DNA of 64,000 nucleotides. Origin: an uncultured Methanomassiliicoccus sp. Its GTDB lineage: Archaea > Thermoplasmatota > Thermoplasmata > Methanomassiliicoccales > Methanomassiliicoccaceae. The notes beneath the pieces were generated by a model that saw only the letters and a list, made by a program, of their open reading frames with translations, ran no database searches and was not told the DNA's origin. Position 1 is the first letter of the stretch; each line of letters starts with the position of its first letter. The position numbers and the translations under genes were made by a program. The stretch lies in NCBI GenBank assembly GCA_964426205.1, contig CAYRPG010000005.1, forward strand, positions 44,574 through 108,573. Reading direction: 5' to 3'. Shown in pieces: positions 9,187 to 21,718 of the stretch.

Positions 9187-9606
9187 TCAATGCTTCTTTC
9201 TATGCCATACGTCGTCAGCCAACGAATCGTACACTGAGTCCTTGTTCGCACCATCGGTCGCAACGGTCCTGCCCTCGATCAGCTCCCGGATGCGCTGCCT
9301 GCGCAACAGCCAGTAATGGATCCTCCATTCCCTTCCGTCGTACAGGGAGATCTCTTCCATCTCGGTGGTCAAGATCCCGCGGTCCTCGAGCATGTAGAAA
9401 AGGTCCCTGTCTACCGGCTCCAGGATGTTGTCGACCACCCGATCGCTGTGACCGAAGAAGTTGAGGATGCGATGGGCCATCTCCTTGGCCTGGTCGTTGG
9501 GCATCTCGTCCTCTTCGATGCTGTTCCTGATCGCGAGCGCCAGCTCATCCAGAGTAATGGCGTGGTGGTCAACTGGCGATTCCCTTGTTGCCATGTTCAT
9601 CCCCAT
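9187..9606 (-). CDS. hypothetical protein
   Basis: 139-aa ORF with normal, acidic-helical composition. A TATA-like box lies in the AT-rich spacer upstream. Confidence 0.5.
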   Translation of the reverse strand: MGMNMATRESPVDHHAITLDELALAIRNSIEEDEMPNDQAKEMAHRILNFFGHSDRVVDNILEPVDRDLFYMLEDRGILTTEMEEISLYDGREWRIHYWLLRRQRIRELIEGRTVATDGANKDSVYDSLADDVWHRKKH

Positions 9607-9913
9607 TGCCTGTCCCGAGCAAGGGCCAGGTGCTAAAAGACATTAAACTGGTGATGTCTATTTATATAAGTATGTTAACGCTCATTTATTGTTCTACACA
9701 GATTATTAGATGAACGATGCCAGACGATCCAACGGATTCTCCATAATCAGGGCGTTATAAGAACGTGTATAGGGAGACCATGAACGAGGTCGACCCTCCA
9801 TAGGGGCATGATGGCCGTGATGAGTTCGCTGATCGGCGTTTCGACCAGAGGCCAGTATTGGTCGGATCTACTGGTCAGGATCCCATTAGCTATAATGTGC
9901 ATCGGGTGGAGGG

Positions 9914-10474
9914 CTAGGCCTCTGGGAGCTCCCGATCGAGCAGTATCAGGGCGTCGTACATGCCGACCAGACCTACGACCCTGGACGTTGCCACCCCGAT
10001 CTCAGGGTCCCTTGATAGGTTGCTCCATGTCGCCATCAACCTGGCGGTCCGGTCAGGGATCGTCCCTAGACCAATGATCAGATTCTTCCTAGTACCATAG
10101 GCTACCAGCTGCCTCATGAGCTCCTCGCTCTCTCTTACCCTGGTGAGCTGAGGTTTGATCTCTTCAGTAACAATATCGACCGCTTTTCGAAAAACCGCGA
10201 TGCTCACAGTTTCCATTATCCTGCTACGCGTTAGCTTCCCCGGCAGCACAATGCCGTCTGGGACGGTCCCCCTCTCAGACGAAACGATCATGCTTCTCAG
10301 CATGGCAAGGTTCGATGCTATGGGCACTTTGCTCTTCGCCATCAGCTCCTCCATCCTCACCAGCCATTCTTTTACCGATGGGGGGAAGGCCCTATCATGC
10401 CGATCATACATGTCCACCATGGAGGGGGCTTGCAGGAGAAGTTCCTGAACCACGTCCAATGAGGGGATGTTCAT
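9914..10474 (-). CDS. hypothetical all-helical protein, third gene of the low-GC cassette
   Basis: 186 aa, starting 9 nt after the stop of the upstream gene. No motif I recognise. Confidence 0.55.
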   Translation of the reverse strand: MNIPSLDVVQELLLQAPSMVDMYDRHDRAFPPSVKEWLVRMEELMAKSKVPIASNLAMLRSMIVSSERGTVPDGIVLPGKLTRSRIMETVSIAVFRKAVDIVTEEIKPQLTRVRESEELMRQLVAYGTRKNLIIGLGTIPDRTARLMATWSNLSRDPEIGVATSRVVGLVGMYDALILLDRELPEA

Positions 10475-10483
10475 TGTGCTCGC

Positions 10484-11182
10484 CTATTCGGGAACCAGAC
10501 GGCTTTTCATCCCGCCCTTTGTGTCGATCCTTGTTATCTCGAACCCATCCTCCGACATGGTGATGTGGAGGGTCACGAGGTTCTCGAGTGGGCCTGCCTG
10601 CATCACCTCTGCCGTCGTGGCCTTGACACTTAGCCGGGGAGGCTGAACAGATAGTCCTACGGCCTTCGCCCTAACCGCCGGTACGAGCTCATCGGAGAAC
10701 CTCTGCGCAGACTCCTCATCAGGCAACCACCCAGTTTCCTTGAGGTAGGACAAAGCGGTGGATGAGGCTTCATCCGCTATGCCAACGACACCGACCGACA
10801 CCTCTACCGGTTGTTCAGACCTCGCCATGGTGTTGGTTATACGGTTGACCAGTTCGTTCTTCTCATCCCCGCTCAGGCCCAGTTTGAACTTCCGCATTTT
10901 TGTTTCCACGGTTTGCTGGATCCCTTTCTTCAGATCGTCTTTTGACACTCCTCCTCTTGGTGAGAGGTGCCCTTTAGGTTCCTCGATCTTATCTATGATT
11001 ACCGGGACCGCGAGCTCTATCGTCGGAAGCCTGAAATGAGGTACCGGGAAATGTTGCAGGATCGGGTCGGCATCGTAATAGTCGGCGATCCTCTTAGTCT
11101 CCAGGTCAACCTGATGCCTCGCGATTATCAGCTCTGATGCGATCGTTCCGACCAGATCTCCAAGATATGGCATGTCGACCAC
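10484..11182 (-). CDS. hypothetical protein, paralog of the 11243-11875 product
   Basis: 232 aa. It shares with the upstream gene an N-terminal helix motif (LGDLVGTIASELIIARHQ versus FASMIGGPLTAVVNAQAQ) and a second motif (FRLPTIELAVPVIIDKIEE versus LRVPILTMLPIPFIRIEE). Confidence 0.6.
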   Translation of the reverse strand: MVDMPYLGDLVGTIASELIIARHQVDLETKRIADYYDADPILQHFPVPHFRLPTIELAVPVIIDKIEEPKGHLSPRGGVSKDDLKKGIQQTVETKMRKFKLGLSGDEKNELVNRITNTMARSEQPVEVSVGVVGIADEASSTALSYLKETGWLPDEESAQRFSDELVPAVRAKAVGLSVQPPRLSVKATTAEVMQAGPLENLVTLHITMSEDGFEITRIDTKGGMKSRLVPE

Positions 11183-11242
11183 TCGTCCTGTCCTACCATG
11201 ATTTTCATTGGGGCGACTGCTTGATCAGGGCTAAGGTCATCC

Positions 11243-11875
11243 TCAGCTCGAGTGGGGCTTGTCCTGCATCGACCCCTCCAGCATCGTCAATAGCCTCTCC
11301 AGACCTGCTGGCATCTCATCCTGCACCGCCCGAACATGGATTGCCATCGAATAGGTACGTTCCACGTTCGAGCCGGACTCCGTGTTCCTCTTGTAGGAGA
11401 CCGATACATTGAGCTTCGCACTTGCTGTCAGCCATCCAGCCTTTGCCTCAAGGCTTGAGGATATGTCAAGCTCGCTGGTGGTTTTCGAATATTCCATCGA
11501 GTTGATCTTGGCATTGAAATCGATCGTTGTCTCTTCGATCCTTATGAAGGGTATCGGGAGCATGGTGAGTATTGGCACCCGGAGATCGAACGTGCCGTAC
11601 TTCGGATCGGTGCCCTTCTGTTCGGGATGGTCTGCCGGTGGCGGGACATATGGCGTTATCATCTTTGTGTAGGTGAAATCCACATACACCGGTTCAATGT
11701 CCGTTTCTGTTGCACCGGATTTATCGGATTTCTTGAACCCTACGGCCTTTATGAAGTTCACAGAGCTCAAGGCTGCTTGAGCCTGTGCGTTCACCACAGC
11801 CGTTAGGGGCCCGCCGATCATAGACGCGAAGTCTATGCTAGATAGCTCTGTTCCTGGGTCAACCATTCTCTCCAC
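11243..11875 (-). CDS. hypothetical protein (recalls DUF2589; unverified memory), first gene of the low-GC cassette
   Basis: 210 aa: an N-terminal amphipathic helix followed by a beta-rich C-terminal half. Preceded by a 420-bp AT-rich spacer. Confidence 0.6.
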   Translation of the reverse strand: MERMVDPGTELSSIDFASMIGGPLTAVVNAQAQAALSSVNFIKAVGFKKSDKSGATETDIEPVYVDFTYTKMITPYVPPPADHPEQKGTDPKYGTFDLRVPILTMLPIPFIRIEETTIDFNAKINSMEYSKTTSELDISSSLEAKAGWLTASAKLNVSVSYKRNTESGSNVERTYSMAIHVRAVQDEMPAGLERLLTMLEGSMQDKPHSS

Positions 11876-12296
11876 CCCATGTTAGACTTTTCTATATTTC
11901 TAGAACGTCCTCTATTTAATAGTGATTATAGCATGCTACTTTCTTTTAATTTCAAAATAATTCTTATGACCTCGGTAGGGGGGACAGACAGACCATGGAC
12001 ATCTGGGGGCAGAATCCGAGGACAAGGTCCTAATGCTGGTGCCGGTCCCCCTGGGAGATCGAAGGGTAGTTAGAACCGCTGAGATACTTCCTCCCCATCC
12101 GCGACGCCCGTCGCGGAGAATTTTGAGAACGGTCCACAGGTCATCGGTTAATAAAAATCGAAGGAGGCCCTGTACTGGAAAATATATGCTCTTTTTAAGG
12201 CATCTATGATCTCGATCGATCACCCATTCAGGTCTGCAACATACAATAATGAACTCGAGATTCTAGAGTAGAGACATCCTATCGTGCAGGTGAGAG

Positions 12297-12575
12297 ATGG
12301 TGTCCAAGGAAAGGGCTGCGCTGCTGTGGGAGCAGTGGGTGATGGGGTTGAGCCCCGCTCTGTTCATGGAGAGGGCACAAGACCTGGCCTTGAACCTAGG
12401 TGCCTGGTGGACCACTCCCAGGAAGGCCGTCCAGTGGTACTTGGATCACCTGGACGACATATTCGGCCCTGGATCTTCGGACCAGGCCCCCGAGGACCTG
12501 GAGGATGCCCTGGTGCAACACATCAAGGATGAGCTTGGGGTGGATGATGATTCGCCTTGGCATGTAGCGGCTTGA
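12297..12575 (+). CDS. small acidic hypothetical protein
   Basis: 92-aa ORF with GGTGAGAG 0 to 1 nt before the ATG. Divergent from the cassette. No homology recognised. Confidence 0.3.
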   Translation: MVSKERAALLWEQWVMGLSPALFMERAQDLALNLGAWWTTPRKAVQWYLDHLDDIFGPGSSDQAPEDLEDALVQHIKDELGVDDDSPWHVAA

Positions 12576-12686: not shown

Positions 12687-13181
12687 TCAGTGGTGATCGT
12701 GCTCATTCTCATGGTCGTGATGGTGCTCGTGCTCATGATCATGCTCATGAGCGTGGCCGTGCCCGTCATCACCATGCGCGTGCTCGTGCTTCTCCAGGTC
12801 CTCCAGGGTCAGGTGGCCACCGGGCACCGAAAGCTCCTGGCGGACCAGGGGATCGACGATCTCCTGTATCTTGGACCTCTTGAGACCATACAGCAGGACG
12901 TTGATGATGACGTCCATCTCCTTGATGCCTTCCTGGAGCTCTCCCCTGGTGTGCGGCTGCCCGGAAGCGTCGACCACGCTGACCGCCAGGAATCCCTTTC
13001 CTCCGGTCTCCACGATGCACTTTATGTGGCCGATGAGGTCAGCTCCCTCGTTCATGCATTCGAGCGCGATCTTGGTCAGCAGGCCTTCTATCCTGCGGGT
13101 CATCTCGGCGGATGACGTCCCATTATGAAGGTGCACGTCCGCTCCGACGGCGTAGGCTGCGAAATCTGGAGTTATCATCAC
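12687..13181 (-). CDS. His-rich metal-binding protein, likely the detached C-terminal partner of the adjacent COG0523 GTPase
   Basis: 164 aa ending in EKHEHAHGDDGHGHAHEHDHEHEHHHDHENEHDHH. Its start (GTG 13181 or ATG 13178) overlaps the upstream stop codon. Confidence 0.65.
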   Translation of the reverse strand: MMITPDFAAYAVGADVHLHNGTSSAEMTRRIEGLLTKIALECMNEGADLIGHIKCIVETGGKGFLAVSVVDASGQPHTRGELQEGIKEMDVIINVLLYGLKRSKIQEIVDPLVRQELSVPGGHLTLEDLEKHEHAHGDDGHGHAHEHDHEHEHHHDHENEHDHH

Positions 13182-13771
13182 ATCACCATCGCATCGACGA
13201 CCTTGTCCATGTTGGTACCTTCGGTCGCGGATATCGGGATGATGGGCTTTGAGCCGTTGATGTCCCTCAGAACGCCGGCCATCCTGTCGATCTCCGAAGC
13301 GCTCACGGCATCCATCTTGTTGAGCAGTATGAGATCGGCAGAGCTGACCTGGTTCGTGAGAGGGCGACCCAGGGCCTTGAGGATCACGTCAAAGCGGGAG
13401 GCGTCGACGATGACGGCGGACCTGATGCTAAGCCCATCGCCGTCGTACGTGTCCATGGCGCGAACGATGGCCGAGGGGTCAGCGACACCGGTCGGCTCGA
13501 TCACCACGAGGTCCGGAGCGATCTGGTTCTCGATATCCTTCACCGTCTGCAGCAGATCGGCCCCCAGCGTGCAGCAGATGCAACCGCTGGCGAGCTCCTT
13601 GACGTTCAGGCCATACTTGCTCATGACCTTGCCGTCGATGCCCACGGTCCCGAAGTCGTTCACGATGATCACGACCTTCTTTCCGGTCCGTTCGATGATG
13701 CGGCTAATGACGGAAAGAACCAACGTGGTCTTGCCAGAGCCCAGAAAACCAGCGACGATGAGCATCTCCAT
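13178..13771 (-). CDS. G3E-family (CobW/COG0523-like) metallochaperone GTPase, GTPase domain only
   Basis: Begins at MEMLIVAGFLGSGKTT (P-loop) and has the GCICCT CxCC motif and an NKMD G4 motif. Only about 197 aa, so it lacks the usual C-terminal domain. Confidence 0.8.
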   Translation of the reverse strand: MEMLIVAGFLGSGKTTLVLSVISRIIERTGKKVVIIVNDFGTVGIDGKVMSKYGLNVKELASGCICCTLGADLLQTVKDIENQIAPDLVVIEPTGVADPSAIVRAMDTYDGDGLSIRSAVIVDASRFDVILKALGRPLTNQVSSADLILLNKMDAVSASEIDRMAGVLRDINGSKPIIPISATEGTNMDKVVDAMVM

Positions 13772-13839
13772 GTTACAGCACCTAGCTATATTGCGATTCG
13801 GGGAACGGTATTTAACGATATATCCGAAACGGTCGTCGA

Positions 13840-14115
13840 CTACCTGAGCTTCGATAAATGGTAACGCAGCCCGTTGGGGAAGGCGGAGCACAAATGATCC
13901 TCTTCCTGCACCTCATCGTCCAGTCCCTGAAAGTGCCGGTCAAGCGCTTCCTTCTCCTCGGCGATGCGGCGGTTGCGGCACCTGGAGCACTCTACCCGCT
14001 TTCCCAGATCATGCTTTCTGCGGACAATGTCCGTATCCAGGTCGGCGATGGCGCCACAGCCGCACAGGGCCTTGTTCATCAAGTTCGGACCAAACATGAG
14101 CTCTACCTCTAGCAA
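13840..14115 (-). CDS. small Cys-containing hypothetical protein
   Basis: 91-aa ORF with CGC...CSRC, upstream of and co-oriented with the GTPase gene. Weak support. Confidence 0.35.
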   Translation of the reverse strand: MLEVELMFGPNLMNKALCGCGAIADLDTDIVRRKHDLGKRVECSRCRNRRIAEEKEALDRHFQGLDDEVQEEDHLCSAFPNGLRYHLSKLR

Positions 14116-18859: not shown

Positions 18860-21718
18860 TCAGTCAGCACTGTCTCCGCGGTGCTCTCCGACCAGCACCA
18901 TGTATGCGAGCAGCGACTCGAGCTGGATGCGCTCGTTCGATCCCTCGACGATGCGGAACTCCGTCTCTCCGGTGCGGTCGATCAGCTTCACCTTCTCATA
19001 GTCCGGTATATCGAGGTCGAATATCGTGCGGTGTATCTGCTTGATGATATCCTCGCCCGACAGCCCGTAGGATATCATGATCTCGTCAAGGCGGTTACGA
19101 GCGGCTATGAAATCACCGGTTATCGCTGTCTGGAGGAGCTCCCTGACCTCTTCCGGTCTTGCCGTCCCGGTGGTGTGGTAGACGAGGTCCACATTGATCT
19201 TATCGCCCAGCGACGCGGCCACCTGAAGGGAGTTGACGGCTTTCCTCATGTCCCCCTGGGACACGTGCACGAGCGCGTCCAGCGCATCATCGGTTATGCT
19301 GATTGCCTCAAGGGACGCGATATGCGTCAGGTAGTTGCGGACATCCTCAGCCCTCAGGGGGCGGAAGCGGAACACCGCGCATCTCGACTGGATGGGCTCG
19401 ATGATCTTTGAACTATAGTTACAATTGTGAGATACTATTCCGTTCGCAATGAAGTTGTGATTGTTCAGGCAGCCTATGTCACGCACGTCGTCGCACTCTA
19501 TCTCTCTCTTGCCGATGATTTCGTTCAAGACAAGCTCGGTCCCTGGAATATCGTACCGTTGCTCCCACTCCGAGTAACCCATGAAGCTTCTTGGCAGGTG
19601 CACTGGTTTGCCTTGGTTCACATGGATAACGAAATCCACGCTGCATCCATTTCTTCTCGAGATCTCACGCAGCGAGCGTTTACCGATCTCAAGCATTATT
19701 TGCGATGCTTTATTCTCCTGTTGCTCGAGAACGAATTGCTTGTGCTTTAGATACTCTCCAGCGAGTTGTGCTTTTTTCATCCTGTTCTTTTCATACGCGT
19801 ACCCTACCTTCTTGAAAAAGGCCAGCATGTTCTCGTTCGAGGAGTTTAGCACTAAGCTGAAGACAATCGGTACTTTTCTGTCCTTCTTCCTTGAGTATCC
19901 TGTCGATCTTTCCTCGATGTAGCTTTTTATGTCAAATTGAGCTAGAAGGTCCCTCATTTGCTCAAAGAAGGTCAATGCCTCAGCCCTTAACTCGGGCACC
20001 TTTTGCTGTCTGAACGATATCGCATTGAATGATTTCCTACCATCATGCGCAGGCGAGTCCGCCTCGCATCCGAACAACGAGCGCAGGAATTCCCTCTTGA
20101 CGAAACGGGTCCCATTGGCCACCCACGAGGGAATCGAGAAGCTCGTTGTTACCTTGTCACCGATCGGCGCCCCGAGGTACTCGCAGAGGAGAGCGAATGG
20201 TAGCGAGTCCACGTGGAACCAGGTTGTTGTCCCGACCAAGCGCCTTTGTGCTAGCTTATGGTCGATCCTCTTACTGTAGATATCCGAGCTTTTTATATGG
20301 AGGATCTCAAGGTCTTTTTTAACAGCATTCAGAGTGTCTTCGTTCCCCGTGAAAATTAGCCTTCTGCTCTTCCTCGTTACATGACCATCGCCCATTAAAA
20401 AGGCCACTATCCTGGCTAATGCGCCGATATGCTCGTCAGAATATGAGAGAGGAAGCAGTCCCTTCTGGGCCAATTCGTTGATGACCCTGTCCACAGTGCC
20501 CTTTGGAATATCCCTTCTCTTTATGTGTCTCTCGACTGTGGCAAACGCGACCTCTATCCCAAATTCCTTTTTGATCGCATTCTGTATGTCCCCTATGTTC
20601 CTTATCGAATGATGCGGCCCGATAGCCCTGAAATTATGGGTCTTTTTGTCAACTGTCCTTTCGACAGCCCCTTTTTGTTCTATGCTCCTCAATAATTGGC
20701 AAGTTCGGACCCTGCTAAGGTTGAGAGCGTTCTGTACCTCTTCCCGTGATGCTTTTCCCCTTGAGCTTATATAGTCATATGCTTCCTTCTCACGAACGGT
20801 GAGTCCCTTTCCCTGGGTGACGAGGGAGTGCAGCTCCCTGATCCTTTTTATTACGTTATCCTTCTGGACGGTCGTCATCCCCTTGAACGCCCCGTTGTCA
20901 TTGGCGCGCTCCAGCTCCACTTCTGAGATGAATTTTTTAAAGTCCTCTGGATCGACCACTTGCCTCAGGTCGTCCTCAAATGGTGTCCCTTCGAGGTTTG
21001 GGTAAACTACGACCTCCGTCCCCAGAGCTATCTCGCCTGCTTTAGTCCAACCATCCTTGGTCAGAATAGGATGATCCTCAGTAACCTTGAGGATTCTGCC
21101 ATTCATCGTGGTAAGCTCATATACTTTTTTACCATTGGCGGAGGGGTTCATCTGCATACCGAACAGGACCAGGTCGTTCTCCAGACCTCTCGTTCCTTCG
21201 TTGACCCCGAGAGTGTTCTTTATCTCCCTGTTCTCAAACCTCCGCATGAAGTCGGCTATCGATATCTCCCTGTCCTCTGAGAGAAGGATCTTTGTGTCTG
21301 GTGTAACGCACGATAGAATGAATCTGCAGGTCTTGCTGTACTTCTCCATCGTTCGCCTCAATGCTGCCTGCGCGTCACCGGTTAGAGCGTCGGCCTCGTC
21401 CAGGAAAATGATCTTGAAACCGGCGCCCCCGATGGGCGCCGTCCTTGCGAAATCCTTTATCTTGCCACGGACCACATCGATGCCCCTCTCGTCCGACGCG
21501 TTCAGCTCGTTGAAGTTGCCCCTCCAGTTCTCCCCGAAGAGCTCCCTGGCCAGAGCGATGGCGGAGGTGGTCTTACCGGTGCCGGCCGGACCAGCGAACA
21601 TCAGGTGGGGAAGGTTCTTCGCCTGAACGTAGGACTCCAGGCGGTCCACGATGTCCTTCTGTCCGACGATCTCCTTAAGCGTCCTCGGCCGGTACTTCTC
21701 TATCCAAATCTCATTCAT
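18860..21718 (-). CDS. rfcS: replication factor C small subunit precursor containing one intein
   Basis: The exteins (136 + 187 aa) give a standard RFC small subunit with Walker [13 protein letters not shown] box FLDEAD and RFILS|[15 protein letters not shown]. Confidence 0.9.
19424..21310 (-). mobile_element. 629-aa intein with LAGLIDADG homing-endonuclease core
   Basis: Starts at Cys ([10 protein letters not shown]) and has block [18 protein letters not shown] motifs [11 protein letters not shown] and [11 protein letters not shown], and terminal [13 protein letters not shown] followed by the +1 Cys. Visibly more AT-rich than the exteins. Confidence 0.85.

Follow-up and report, generated by a model that had tools for sequence, protein, structure and literature searches.

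Three intact open reading frames, here called A, B and C, follow one another on the minus strand of the window (the whole stretch of 64,000 nucleotides of Methanomassiliicoccus DNA that was analysed), and are bracketed by two AT-rich spacers (Table 1). An earlier note on this DNA had recognised the three frames correctly but had begun A and B too far upstream, at the GTG codons 11875 and 11182. These starts were rejected because the homologues share the N-termini MPxPGQEL (A) and MPYLGD (B), and independent gene calls on same-species contigs likewise place the starts at the ATG codons 11866 and 11173. With the corrected starts the gap between A and B is 69 nt instead of 60, and the 9 nt that separate the stop codon of B from the start of C are retained.

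Table 1. Positions of the three genes and adjoining spacers in the window
Feature	Position	Strand	Description
Gene A	11243..11866	-	207 aa, DUF2589 family; slowly evolving, presumably major subunit
Gene B	10484..11173	-	229 aa, unannotated family
Gene C	9914..10474	-	186 aa, unannotated family, probably mostly helical
A-B intergenic spacer	11174..11242	-	69 nt
AT-rich upstream spacer	11867..12296	-	45.6% GC (measured over 11876-12296); presumably promoter and ribosome-binding site
AT-rich downstream spacer	9607..9913	-	47.6% GC; between C and the DUF6015 gene

Computed values bear out the impression, originally gained by eye, that the cassette is less GC-rich than the topA and COG0523 genes. 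A, B and C have GC contents of 52.9, 54.5 and 55.3% (GC3 of 65, 64 and 68%), as against 62.5% for topA (GC3 87) and 57.8% for the COG0523/CobW gene (GC3 77); the GC3 of the flanking genes ranges from 77 to 89%, compared with 64-68% in the cassette. The window as a whole has 60.9% GC, and a GC content as low as that of the cassette is found in only 7.5% of windows of equal size. A second GC-poor block of the window, at 19-22 kb, is an intein within the RFC small-subunit gene.

The two spacers are indeed very AT-rich, falling in the lowest 1.1-1.4% of 300-nt windows. They are ordinary intergenic or promoter DNA, and the suggestion that they insulate the cassette was not borne out; a search for mobile-element boundaries found repeats around the cassette at chance level only. 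The upstream spacer presumably holds the cassette promoter. A GGTGGAG stretch immediately 5' of ATG 11866 and TATA-like A/T-rich boxes (TATAAT, ATTAAATA) approximately 45-65 nt upstream of A can be read from the sequence, and a long upstream gap is found across the family (median 292 nt). Rfam gave zero matches to the DNA surrounding the cassette, to nine further loci and to the whole window, a consensus scan detected no terminator-like site in the downstream spacer, and no sigma-54, LexA, CIRCE, HAIR, sigma-32, ECF or Fur motif was found in 82 upstream regions. Several independent same-species assemblies break inside the downstream spacer, and comparison of loci places the DUF6015 gene beyond it outside the conserved module. 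All related contigs found belong to the same species (98-100% identical), are collinear with the window and carry the cassette, and no cassette-less sister genome was found among them.

Conservation, spacing and spread of the operon

The order A-B-C recurs irrespective of the gene from which the search is begun. In genome loci selected by A, A is followed by B in 77 of 78 and B by C in 72 of 74; in metagenome loci selected by B, A precedes B in all 67 and C follows B in 53 of 57. Order and orientation are thus kept in essentially every locus, as expected if the three genes are one functional unit, and A-B-C is a near-invariant operon with the same gene order in approximately 20 phyla of bacteria and archaea. 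The divergence of the three proteins is correlated (Spearman 0.74-0.79). The cassette is self-contained: no fourth conserved gene appeared in the loci compared, the flanks are heterogeneous, and the strands of the flanking genes are distributed about 50/50. One locus (L009) was considered as a possible case of B-C without A and set aside, as the contig has just 221 nt upstream of B, a distance that falls inside the range of A-B gaps at other loci. A sister layout, A-B-A', occurs in Bacteroidota-like contigs. Elsewhere DUF2589 genes form tandem paralogues, and a B-like gene lies between two DUF2589 genes in one such locus (L104) and probably in a second (L101).

The spacing within the operon is likewise conserved. 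The B-C gap has a median of 7 nt, with 63 of 75 gaps at or below 12 nt, and by this spacing B and C are translationally coupled. The A-B spacer is longer, with a median of 59 nt in other genomes, where 35 of 58 loci from bacteria and 7 of 17 from archaea carry a strong stem-loop (dG -10 or stronger) right behind the stop codon of A. Folds of the spacer have a mean z of -2.1, and several resemble intrinsic terminators; hairpins can also stabilise mRNA instead of attenuating transcription. The hairpin is missing in about 40% of the loci, and in the window no significant structure follows A (z = -0.6).

The proposal that the cassette is accessory and horizontally mobile agrees with its distribution, since pattern matches occur in just 209 of 185,579 species genomes, its GC3 in the window is atypical for the host, and pairs of one archaeon and one bacterium reach identities of 93% (A), 76% (B) and 84% (C). 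The A proteins of Methanotrichaceae, for instance, are 91-93% identical to those of Smithella and Desulforhopalus. Such identities clearly point to recent movement of the cassette between methanogens and bacterial neighbours, and because it moved in this way the cassette would be both useful and independent of its host. Small modules rarely remain intact over approximately 20 phyla in both prokaryotic domains, and the few that do usually prove to encode basic cell-biological devices. Cultured carriers include Methanothrix harundinacea, Bacteroides pyogenes, Flavobacterium micromati, Limnobacter humi, Aquabacterium lacunae, Marinimicrobium species and Aliikangiella maris, so that the function is directly testable.

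The three protein families

The likeness of A to DUF2589, which the earlier note had proposed, proved correct. A matches PF11655 over nearly the full model (positions 3-152 of 154) with E = 1.2e-25 and a score of 91.1 bits, the cut-off being 23, and on this match can be regarded with confidence as a true member of the family. Homologues at about 60% identity number more than 2,155, and all 120 of those listed carry PF11655 as a precomputed annotation. Compared over the same 76 loci, A has a mean pairwise identity of 62%, B of 31% and C of 28%. One Pro/Ala-rich loop of A is variable; elsewhere invariant residues occur throughout the chain. A is conserved to about the degree of a core chaperone but has no enzymatic motif. 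Judged from this conservation and from its fixed partners, B and C, the A-B-C triad stands apart within DUF2589 as a subfamily of its own that is far better conserved. The protein is acidic (median pI 5.0) and predicted to consist of an N-terminal helix, a proline-punctuated strand, four long amphipathic strands and a C-terminal helix. Only this secondary structure was used, as the AF2 model of A is poor (pLDDT 44) and was built from a shallow alignment (Neff about 1.5). Sequence and profile searches of the PDB with A returned nothing. In the literature DUF2589 is mentioned in passing only, with Archaeoglobus fulgidus AF0414-AF0417 described just as 'unknown, short, DUF2589 related genes' and up-regulated on lactate (PMC3949148); searches for PF11655, IPR024510 and AF0414-0417 gave nothing more.

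B belongs to a family with 928 representatives at 50% clustering, which has no match in Pfam, NCBIfam, PADLOC or PHROGs; a Pfam scan of 53 members and 10 unusually long ones revealed no consistent or fused domain. The AF2 model (pLDDT 94, pTM 0.76) predicts a long N-terminal helix, a PxP strand, an inserted four-helix bundle of approximately 100 residues and a C-terminal three-stranded sheet, and the extreme C-terminus is conserved (R-L-V-P-E). Sequence and profile searches of the PDB were empty, and in a Foldseek comparison of the model with PDB and BFVD no match fell below E = 0.01, with generic helix-bundle noise only. The confidently predicted fold of B is accordingly unmatched in either collection.

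The earlier note had described A and B as paralogues, of which only the local part could be upheld. A BLASTP comparison of the two gave E = 0.025, and profile-profile alignment (hhalign) returned 33-36 columns over the proline-punctuated strand (E 8e-4 to 4e-3, probability 8-25%) together with a second match of 26 columns over the N-terminal helices. The two matches are collinear (A12-37 with B3-28, A108-140 with B37-69), with probabilities of 7-25% over both. They outscore all column shuffles (none of 200 and none of 150 was as good), with the best shuffles coming close and the reversed profile scoring 22.9 against the observed 29.5. The C-terminal halves do not align, and there is no similarity over the full length. 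B as a whole has no Pfam match to DUF2589, one of 53 family members reaching E = 0.019, and an attempt to connect A and B transitively through DUF2589 intermediates (Vibrio, deltaproteobacterial and Fulvitalea sequences) was unconvincing. A shared local module, comprising the two short motifs, is therefore plausible from these alignments, whereas 'paralogues' is an overstatement of what the A/B data can show.

For C nothing was found in Pfam, NCBIfam, PADLOC or PHROGs, and the PDB search was empty even with a profile of 52 sequences. A Pfam scan of the 52 members gave no consistent or fused domain, and no relatives of C were detectable outside the A-B-C module. An alignment-averaged Chou-Fasman prediction, a crude measure, makes C mostly helix, with Pro and Gly confined to a few columns; the former description of C as helical is thus retained, and 'all-helical' only roughly so.

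Features of known machinery were sought in all three proteins (186-229 aa). Pfam and NCBIfam yielded no enzymatic domain, and specifically no sensor, NTPase, nuclease or protease domain; nor was a toxin or antitoxin domain found in these databases or in PADLOC. PADLOC-DB v2 gave no match at E <= 1 and PHROGs nothing below E = 0.04. The highest Kyte-Doolittle means over 19 residues are 1.2 (A), 1.2 (B) and 1.6 (C), with charged residues in the top segments, in line with the original reading that the proteins have neither a TM helix nor an enzyme motif. Pfam and PDB profile searches for encapsulin, gas-vesicle GvpA, bactofilin and BMC-type shells or filaments were empty, and the B model matched no known shell or filament in PDB or BFVD. 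Literature searches for A, B and C found nothing beyond the passing mentions of DUF2589. In combination, the family, structure and literature searches match A-B-C to no described system, as the earlier note had supposed; B and C define two new protein families, and DUF2589 gains a fixed genomic partnership.

A proposed protein assembly and its alternatives

A non-enzymatic, assembly-type mechanism stays the most reasonable reading, and A-B-C probably encodes a self-contained three-component protein assembly. In the proposed arrangement A would be an abundant subunit that self-oligomerises or polymerises through surfaces along nearly its whole length. B would carry an A-like module, the N-terminal helix and proline-punctuated strand, with the bulky four-helix bundle as an insert, and may be a minor component that adapts, nucleates or caps the assembly of A. 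C, which would be produced one-to-one with B, may be its helical partner. The assembly would need no host-specific factor, allowing the cassette to work after transfer between bacterium and archaeon. The division into a major A and minor B and C is about evenly balanced between right and wrong.

The leading guess as to the role is action at the cytoplasmic membrane or cell envelope, in the form of permeabilisation or release. This guess was made because a minority of bacterial loci join the cassette operonically to wall-binding or hydrolase genes that lack a signal peptide. In one operon (L075) the gene for a protein with PG_binding_1 (E = 4e-10) and a weak VanY match overlaps C by 4 nt, in a second (L032) a gene with weak VanY and PG_binding_1 matches follows at a gap of 27 nt, and in three others (L012, L029 and L039) the operon includes a 187-aa protein with only an SxHxxGxAxD motif, at a gap of 19 nt or overlapping. 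PG_binding_1 and muramidase genes lie divergently upstream in L049 and L052, and a muramidase-like or 'peptidoglycan-binding' protein accompanies the distant DUF2589 clusters L103 and L186. MscS channels adjoin L016 and L186. None of the wall-related proteins near the triad or the DUF2589 clusters has a signal peptide, and wall enzymes of this kind need help to cross the membrane. The link holds for about 7 of some 60 bacterial loci, perhaps 4-5 independent events, with two enzymes assigned on scores under the Pfam cut-offs and one on the motif only, with no Pfam or PDB match. In over 85% of the loci, including all archaeal ones and the window, a wall-related neighbour is absent, and the archaea that carry the cassette have no murein. 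Because A, B and C have no hydrophobic segment, action on the membrane would require a beta-type or peripheral mechanism. The whole proposal, with the envelope role included, is accordingly put forward as tentative. Equally speculative is the broader picture of a new kind of portable, self-assembling machine made of folds without solved or described relatives, which would function unaltered in bacteria and archaea and might be either a new cytoplasmic body or filament or a TM-free permeabiliser that releases wall enzymes lacking signal peptides.

A purely cytoplasmic filament, sheet, shell or storage or organising body, made mainly of A with B and C as minor assembly factors, would account for much of the same evidence: the constraint on A, the hairpin after it, the coupling of B and C, the absence of enzymatic domains and flanks of the housekeeping type. 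It also accords with the predominance of loci without a wall-related neighbour, and the predicted long strands of A, which alternate hydrophobic and polar residues, would suit a two-faced sheet. However, such a body matches no known structural family, it leaves the recurrent operonic fusions to wall genes without explanation, and the diverse carriers share no phenotype pointing to a visible structure. We consider it somewhat unlikely.

Defence against viruses, whether by abortive infection or as another conflict module, with A as an effector such as a pore former that is held or triggered by B-C, would fit the patchy distribution, the evident cross-domain transfer and the atypical composition of the cassette in the window. 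A transposase and a type I R-M system adjoin the Methanothrix harundinacea cassette, Cas, ShosA, PsyrA, dCTPase or PDC-candidate genes lie next to a small number of loci, lysis-type enzymes are occasionally adjacent, and the predicted amphipathic strands of A are rich in Ser and Thr. Against this, A, B and C have no PADLOC match and no sensor, NTPase, nuclease or protease domain, and very few of the 142 first and 118 second neighbours (counted by family) match a defence model. Housekeeping genes make up the majority, including those for AdoMet synthase, GcpE, RtcB, tRNA synthetases, glutamate synthase and transketolase, and integrases, transposases and phage genes are not enriched around the approximately 70 loci. 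No A-type gene occurs in 2.9 million IMG/VR contigs, and the phage and plasmid collections hold distant DUF2589 relatives only, the phage collection contributing one unverified 4-kb scaffold at 34% identity. Moreover, a mean identity of 62% for A over approximately 20 phyla is unlike that of arms-race proteins. The framing of the locus as a defence, toxin or provirus element, and its expected placement in defence islands or proviruses, thus found no support in these neighbourhoods, in which PADLOC matches are scattered, and an anti-viral module is unlikely.

An ATP-independent chaperone or holdase, with A as an acidic, SecB-like oligomer and B-C as its co-factors or clients, is very unlikely. 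The top Foldseek matches of the A model are SecB and the SecB-like Rv1957 (E 3e-3 to 8e-2), A is acidic, and the prediction for its C-terminal half is a meander of four strands plus a helix. In chaperone operons, as here, a highly conserved core protein is accompanied by faster-evolving partners. However, the model is unreliable in the matched region (pLDDT 31-43, TM-scores 0.26-0.43, rmsd about 5-13 Å), a SecB signal is absent from Pfam and PDB profile searches, upstream regions lack a heat-shock-type regulatory motif, and neither B nor C is similar to a toxin or antitoxin family. The SecB and hotdog matches of A, coming from a model of pLDDT 44, are a lead only. Finally, that three unrelated lineage-specific genes merely lie side by side, as their lack of known functions and the undetectable boundary repeats might suggest, has practically no probability left, being in effect refuted by the near-perfect synteny that A- and B-based searches recovered over approximately 150 independent loci in both domains, by the co-divergence of A, B and C and by the translational coupling of B to C.

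Comparison with known systems

The minority of bacterial loci in which the triad is joined to, or lies beside, interchangeable wall-binding or wall-hydrolase genes without signal peptides, some of them weakly assigned, would recall a phage-type holin-endolysin cassette or secretion that depends on holin and endolysin. Unlike such cassettes, the triad contains no TM helix and hence no canonical holin, it was not found in viral collections, and most of its loci have no wall enzyme. The logic of the chaperone alternative is loosely that of toxin-antitoxin-chaperone modules or of the horizontally spread grpE-dnaK-dnaJ operon. With SecB toxin-antitoxin-chaperone modules the triad shares the number of genes, an acidic A and, in a low-confidence model, the sheet-plus-helix topology of SecB; it differs in showing no sequence similarity, in gene order and in having partners that match no toxin or antitoxin.

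Clusters of DUF2589 genes such as Archaeoglobus fulgidus AF0414-AF0417 resemble the triad in combining tandem paralogues with unannotated partners, whereas the partners of the triad, B and C, are fixed and neither is in Pfam. Gas-vesicle (gvpA-type) and pilus or fimbrial operons encode the major subunit first and then minor or accessory ones. The triad has no sequence or fold relationship to them and lacks signal peptides and TM segments. The analogy is thus one of logic only, in that the first gene is the most conserved and often followed by a stem-loop, tightly coupled accessory genes come next, and the presumed minor component, B, would share the assembly module of the major one.

The cassette and its surroundings

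The window is archaeal DNA by gene content, with an RFC small subunit whose closest match is from A. fulgidus and with NikR, HypA/HypD and DUF6015 genes. On its minus strand, positions 9914-11875 hold three intact, head-to-tail open reading frames (A, B and C), separated by 69 nt (A-B) and 9 nt (B-C). All three (52.9-55.3% GC, GC3 64-68%) are compositionally distinct from their neighbours, in a window of ~61% GC where GC3 is 87% in topA, 77% in the CobW gene and 79% in the DUF6015 gene. The spacers on either side have 47.6% and 45.6% GC, within the lowest 1.1-1.4% of 300-nt windows. The low-GC, minus-strand cassette between AT-rich spacers described in an earlier note was thus essentially right, whereas its start codons for A and B were moved to those tabulated, to agree with the N-termini of homologues and with gene calls made independently on contigs of the same species. 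A search around the cassette for flanking repeats, Rfam elements and consensus terminators found none, and an Rfam scan of the whole window (1-64000) returned zero families at gathering score, which argues that it contains no tRNA, rRNA or riboswitch.

Coordinates of the cassette genes, of other window features and of features at related loci (L-numbers)
Feature	Location	Position (strand)	Length	Remarks
A, DUF2589 family	window	11243-11866 (-)	207 aa	start ATG 11866
B	window	10484-11173 (-)	229 aa	start ATG 11173
C	window	9914-10474 (-)	186 aa	start 10474
DUF6015 member	window	9187-9606 (-)		E=7e-28; downstream of cassette
Same-species contig ends	window	9699, 9726, 9915, 9944
Divergent ORF	window	12297-12575 (+)	92 aa
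His-rich protein	window	12687-13181 (-)	164 aa	very His-rich C-terminal tail HEHAHGDDGHGHAHEHDHEHEHHHDHENEHDHH
CobW/COG0523-type GTPase	window	13178-13891 (-)		adjoins His-rich gene
RFC small subunit ORF	window	18860-21718 (-)	952 aa	PDB 2chq, E=2e-128
HExxH-like protein	L027	10193-10741	183 aa
HExxH-like protein	L050	10055-10603	183 aa
Stretch with a second, shorter A-like DUF2589 gene	L049	8001-9244		Bacteroidales; E ~1e-21
Stretch with a second, shorter A-like DUF2589 gene	L052	8001-9243		Bacteroidales; E ~1e-21
DUF2589, B-like, second DUF2589 replacing C	L104	144-2441		MT839761.1, unverified 'Bacteriophage sp.' scaffold
DUF2589, probably B-like, second DUF2589 replacing C	L101	4959-7433		Fulvitalea axinellae plasmid pFA8

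The DUF6015 member lies outside the conserved triad in other genomes. The divergent 92-aa ORF, which is predicted as a gene on every contig of the same species, has neither a family match nor conservation beside the triad elsewhere. Independent same-species metagenome assemblies repeatedly end in the AT-rich C-DUF6015 spacer, which may be due to low coverage at this junction or to differences between strains. The His-rich gene starts within the end of the GTPase gene, overlapping its stop codon by 4 nt, with NikR and HypA/HypD nearby, and the pair is probably a metallochaperone. The RFC match is split between residues 3-137 and ~770-950 by an insert of ~630 aa with DnaB-intein-like similarity at residues 147-245, so rfcS contains an intein; this explains a second GC-poor block (50-52% GC, 19-22 kb).

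Conservation of the triad in Bacteria and Archaea

When a single genome was scanned for each species, 209 species had an A-type gene. Synteny was followed in 80 retrieved loci from ~20 phyla, with bacterial carriers including Bacteroidota, Desulfobacterota, Pseudomonadota, Chloroflexota, Planctomycetota, Actinomycetota, Armatimonadota, Thermotogota, Chlorobiota and Bacillota, and archaeal carriers including Methanotrichaceae, Methanosarcinaceae, Methanocellales, Bathyarchaeia and Nitrososphaerales. Among A-selected genome loci, A is followed by B in 77 of 78 and B by C in 72 of 74; of the two exceptions, one has a divergent C. Likewise, B-selected metagenome loci have A upstream of B wherever there is room upstream (67/67) and C downstream in 53 of 57. 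Four metagenome loci (L137, L142, L157, L173) and one from Thermotogae (L024) carry A and B with no C-like gene after B despite room, and may represent a two-gene variant or a replaced third gene. All-against-all clustering of every other ORF in the loci revealed no fourth conserved gene. In several unrelated hosts C is immediately followed by a same-strand gene for a 183-aa protein that has an HExxH-like motif (AEHEQDH) and matches nothing in Pfam (fragments in L020, L022 and L030); it may be an optional fourth gene.

Pairwise divergence is correlated among the three proteins (Spearman 0.74-0.79), and bacterial and archaeal copies are intermixed. A of Methanotrichaceae is 91-93% identical to that of Desulforhopalus and Smithella, and cross-domain identity reaches 76% for B and 84% for C, the latter being the maximum over all archaeon-bacterium pairs. 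The near-identical cassettes of Methanotrichaceae (L020, L025) and of Smithella (L022), Desulforhopalus (L023) and Gammaproteobacteria (L027, L050), at 91-93% for A and 72-76% for B, point to recent whole-cassette transfer between methanogens and co-resident anaerobic bacteria. The window copy is a divergent lineage, with best identities to other copies of 64% (A) and 38% (B).

Over the same 76 loci, mean identity is 62% for A, 31% for B and 28% for C, A being twice as conserved, and the invariant positions of A span the entire chain except one length-variable Pro/Ala-rich loop. The conserved parts of B are the N-terminal helix, the PxP strand and the C-terminal strands, including a terminal LVPE motif that the family member P0248 retains despite an 80-residue insertion; the helical insert is variable. 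A strong stem-loop stands directly 3' of the A stop codon, in an A-B spacer of median 59 nt, in 35 of 58 bacterial loci and 7 of 17 archaeal ones, a rate comparable to that after C, where the operon ends. The spacer fold z averages -2.1 and several spacers resemble intrinsic terminators; the window's own A-B spacer has no such hairpin. The B-C gap has a median of 7 nt. Taken together, the constraint on A, the hairpins behind it and the tight B-C spacing fit an abundant, heavily constrained A with an equimolar minor B-C pair.

Protein families, predicted structures and the relation of A to B

A clearly belongs to DUF2589 (E=1.2e-25), with >2,155 homologues at ~60% identity, counted as clusters. 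B, which has 928 representatives when clustered at 50%, and C are unannotated families: both gave zero matches in Pfam, NCBIfam, PADLOC and PHROGs, comparison with PDB sequences was empty even with family profiles, and dozens of members scanned one by one gave no consistent match. No TM-like segment was found in A, B or C, and median pI values of 5.0, 5.9 and 6.6, respectively, tend to acidic or near neutral. AlphaFold2 gave a confident model of B (pLDDT 94, pTM 0.76), comprising in order a 32-residue N-terminal helix, a PxP motif with a 13-residue strand, an inserted four-helix bundle of ~100 residues and a short C-terminal sheet; the best Foldseek matches had E=0.13 in PDB and 0.012 in BFVD, with low TM-scores throughout. 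The A model was poor (pLDDT 44), which we attribute to a shallow input alignment, and is usable for secondary structure alone, with predicted helices at 13-43 and 187-199 and strands at 61-71, 89-98, 107-120, 131-143, 147-160 and 168-183.

The earlier claim that A and B are paralogues was too strong, although part of it held. BLASTP between them is marginal (E=0.025), and profile-profile comparison aligns the proline-punctuated strand alone (A108-140 with B37-69; E=8e-4, probability 25%); the N-terminal helices, compared separately, align too (A12-37 with B3-28). The two matches are collinear and each lies above all column shuffles (0/200 and 0/150), but the controls score close: 29.5 for the strand against 28.6 for the best shuffle and 22.9 for the reversed profile, and 15.0 against 14.8 for the helix. 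From these alignments an N-terminal assembly module common to both proteins is plausible, and full paralogy is unproven. DUF2589 genes occur as tandem paralogues in other genomes, and two sister layouts have a second one at the position of C; the middle gene of the phage-labelled scaffold matches the B profile (E=1e-8, hhalign probability 91%). In two Bacteroidales loci the second A-like gene lies between A and B.

Genomic context and a proposed assembly

Flanking genes are split ~50/50 between strands and the gap upstream has a median of 292 nt, so the cassette forms a separate transcription unit. In a minority pattern, wall-related genes without signal peptides are attached to the triad or neighbour DUF2589 clusters. 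These encode PG_binding_1 with a weak VanY, in a gene that overlaps C at its end (L075), weak VanY and PG_binding_1 (L032), a common 187-aa protein whose only feature is an SxHxxGxAxD motif (L012, L029, L039), a divergent upstream PG_binding_1 plus muramidase (L049, L052), and, in distant clusters, a muramidase-like or 'peptidoglycan-binding' protein (L103, L186); the total is about a tenth of bacterial loci, with some assignments below curated cut-offs.

In the favoured reading, A would be the main building block of a non-enzymatic assembly, B an adaptor, nucleator or cap reusing the N-terminal module of A, and C the partner of B, an architecture about as likely as not. Because wall-enzyme partners lacking signal peptides recur, this reading leans slightly towards a role at the membrane or envelope, and the statement including that site is tentative; a structure confined to the cytoplasm has nearly the same likelihood. 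Defence or conflict is somewhat less likely than either and lacks contextual support: the 260 first and second neighbour proteins come mostly from ordinary metabolism and information processing, with scattered defence-model matches and no enrichment of integrases, transposases or phage genes. IMG/VR holds no A-type genes, and phage and plasmid collections hold them only as distant DUF2589 relatives (28-37%), which together with the neighbours argues against the defence-island or provirus placement raised earlier. A SecB-like chaperone role is very unlikely, its basis being weak Foldseek matches of the unreliable A model, a lead and not a result.

The sole family link of the cassette is DUF2589, which has no described function or structure and is mentioned only twice, in passing, in the literature searched. 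Among the databases compared, no known system has the same components or the B fold, and the module is therefore rated outside every described kind of system. It is new in the sense of unmatched and uncharacterised, and may yet have a distant structural relative. An abundant subunit with minor coupled genes is the usual operon layout for self-assembling structures, and the cassette resembles such operons in layout, by analogy only.
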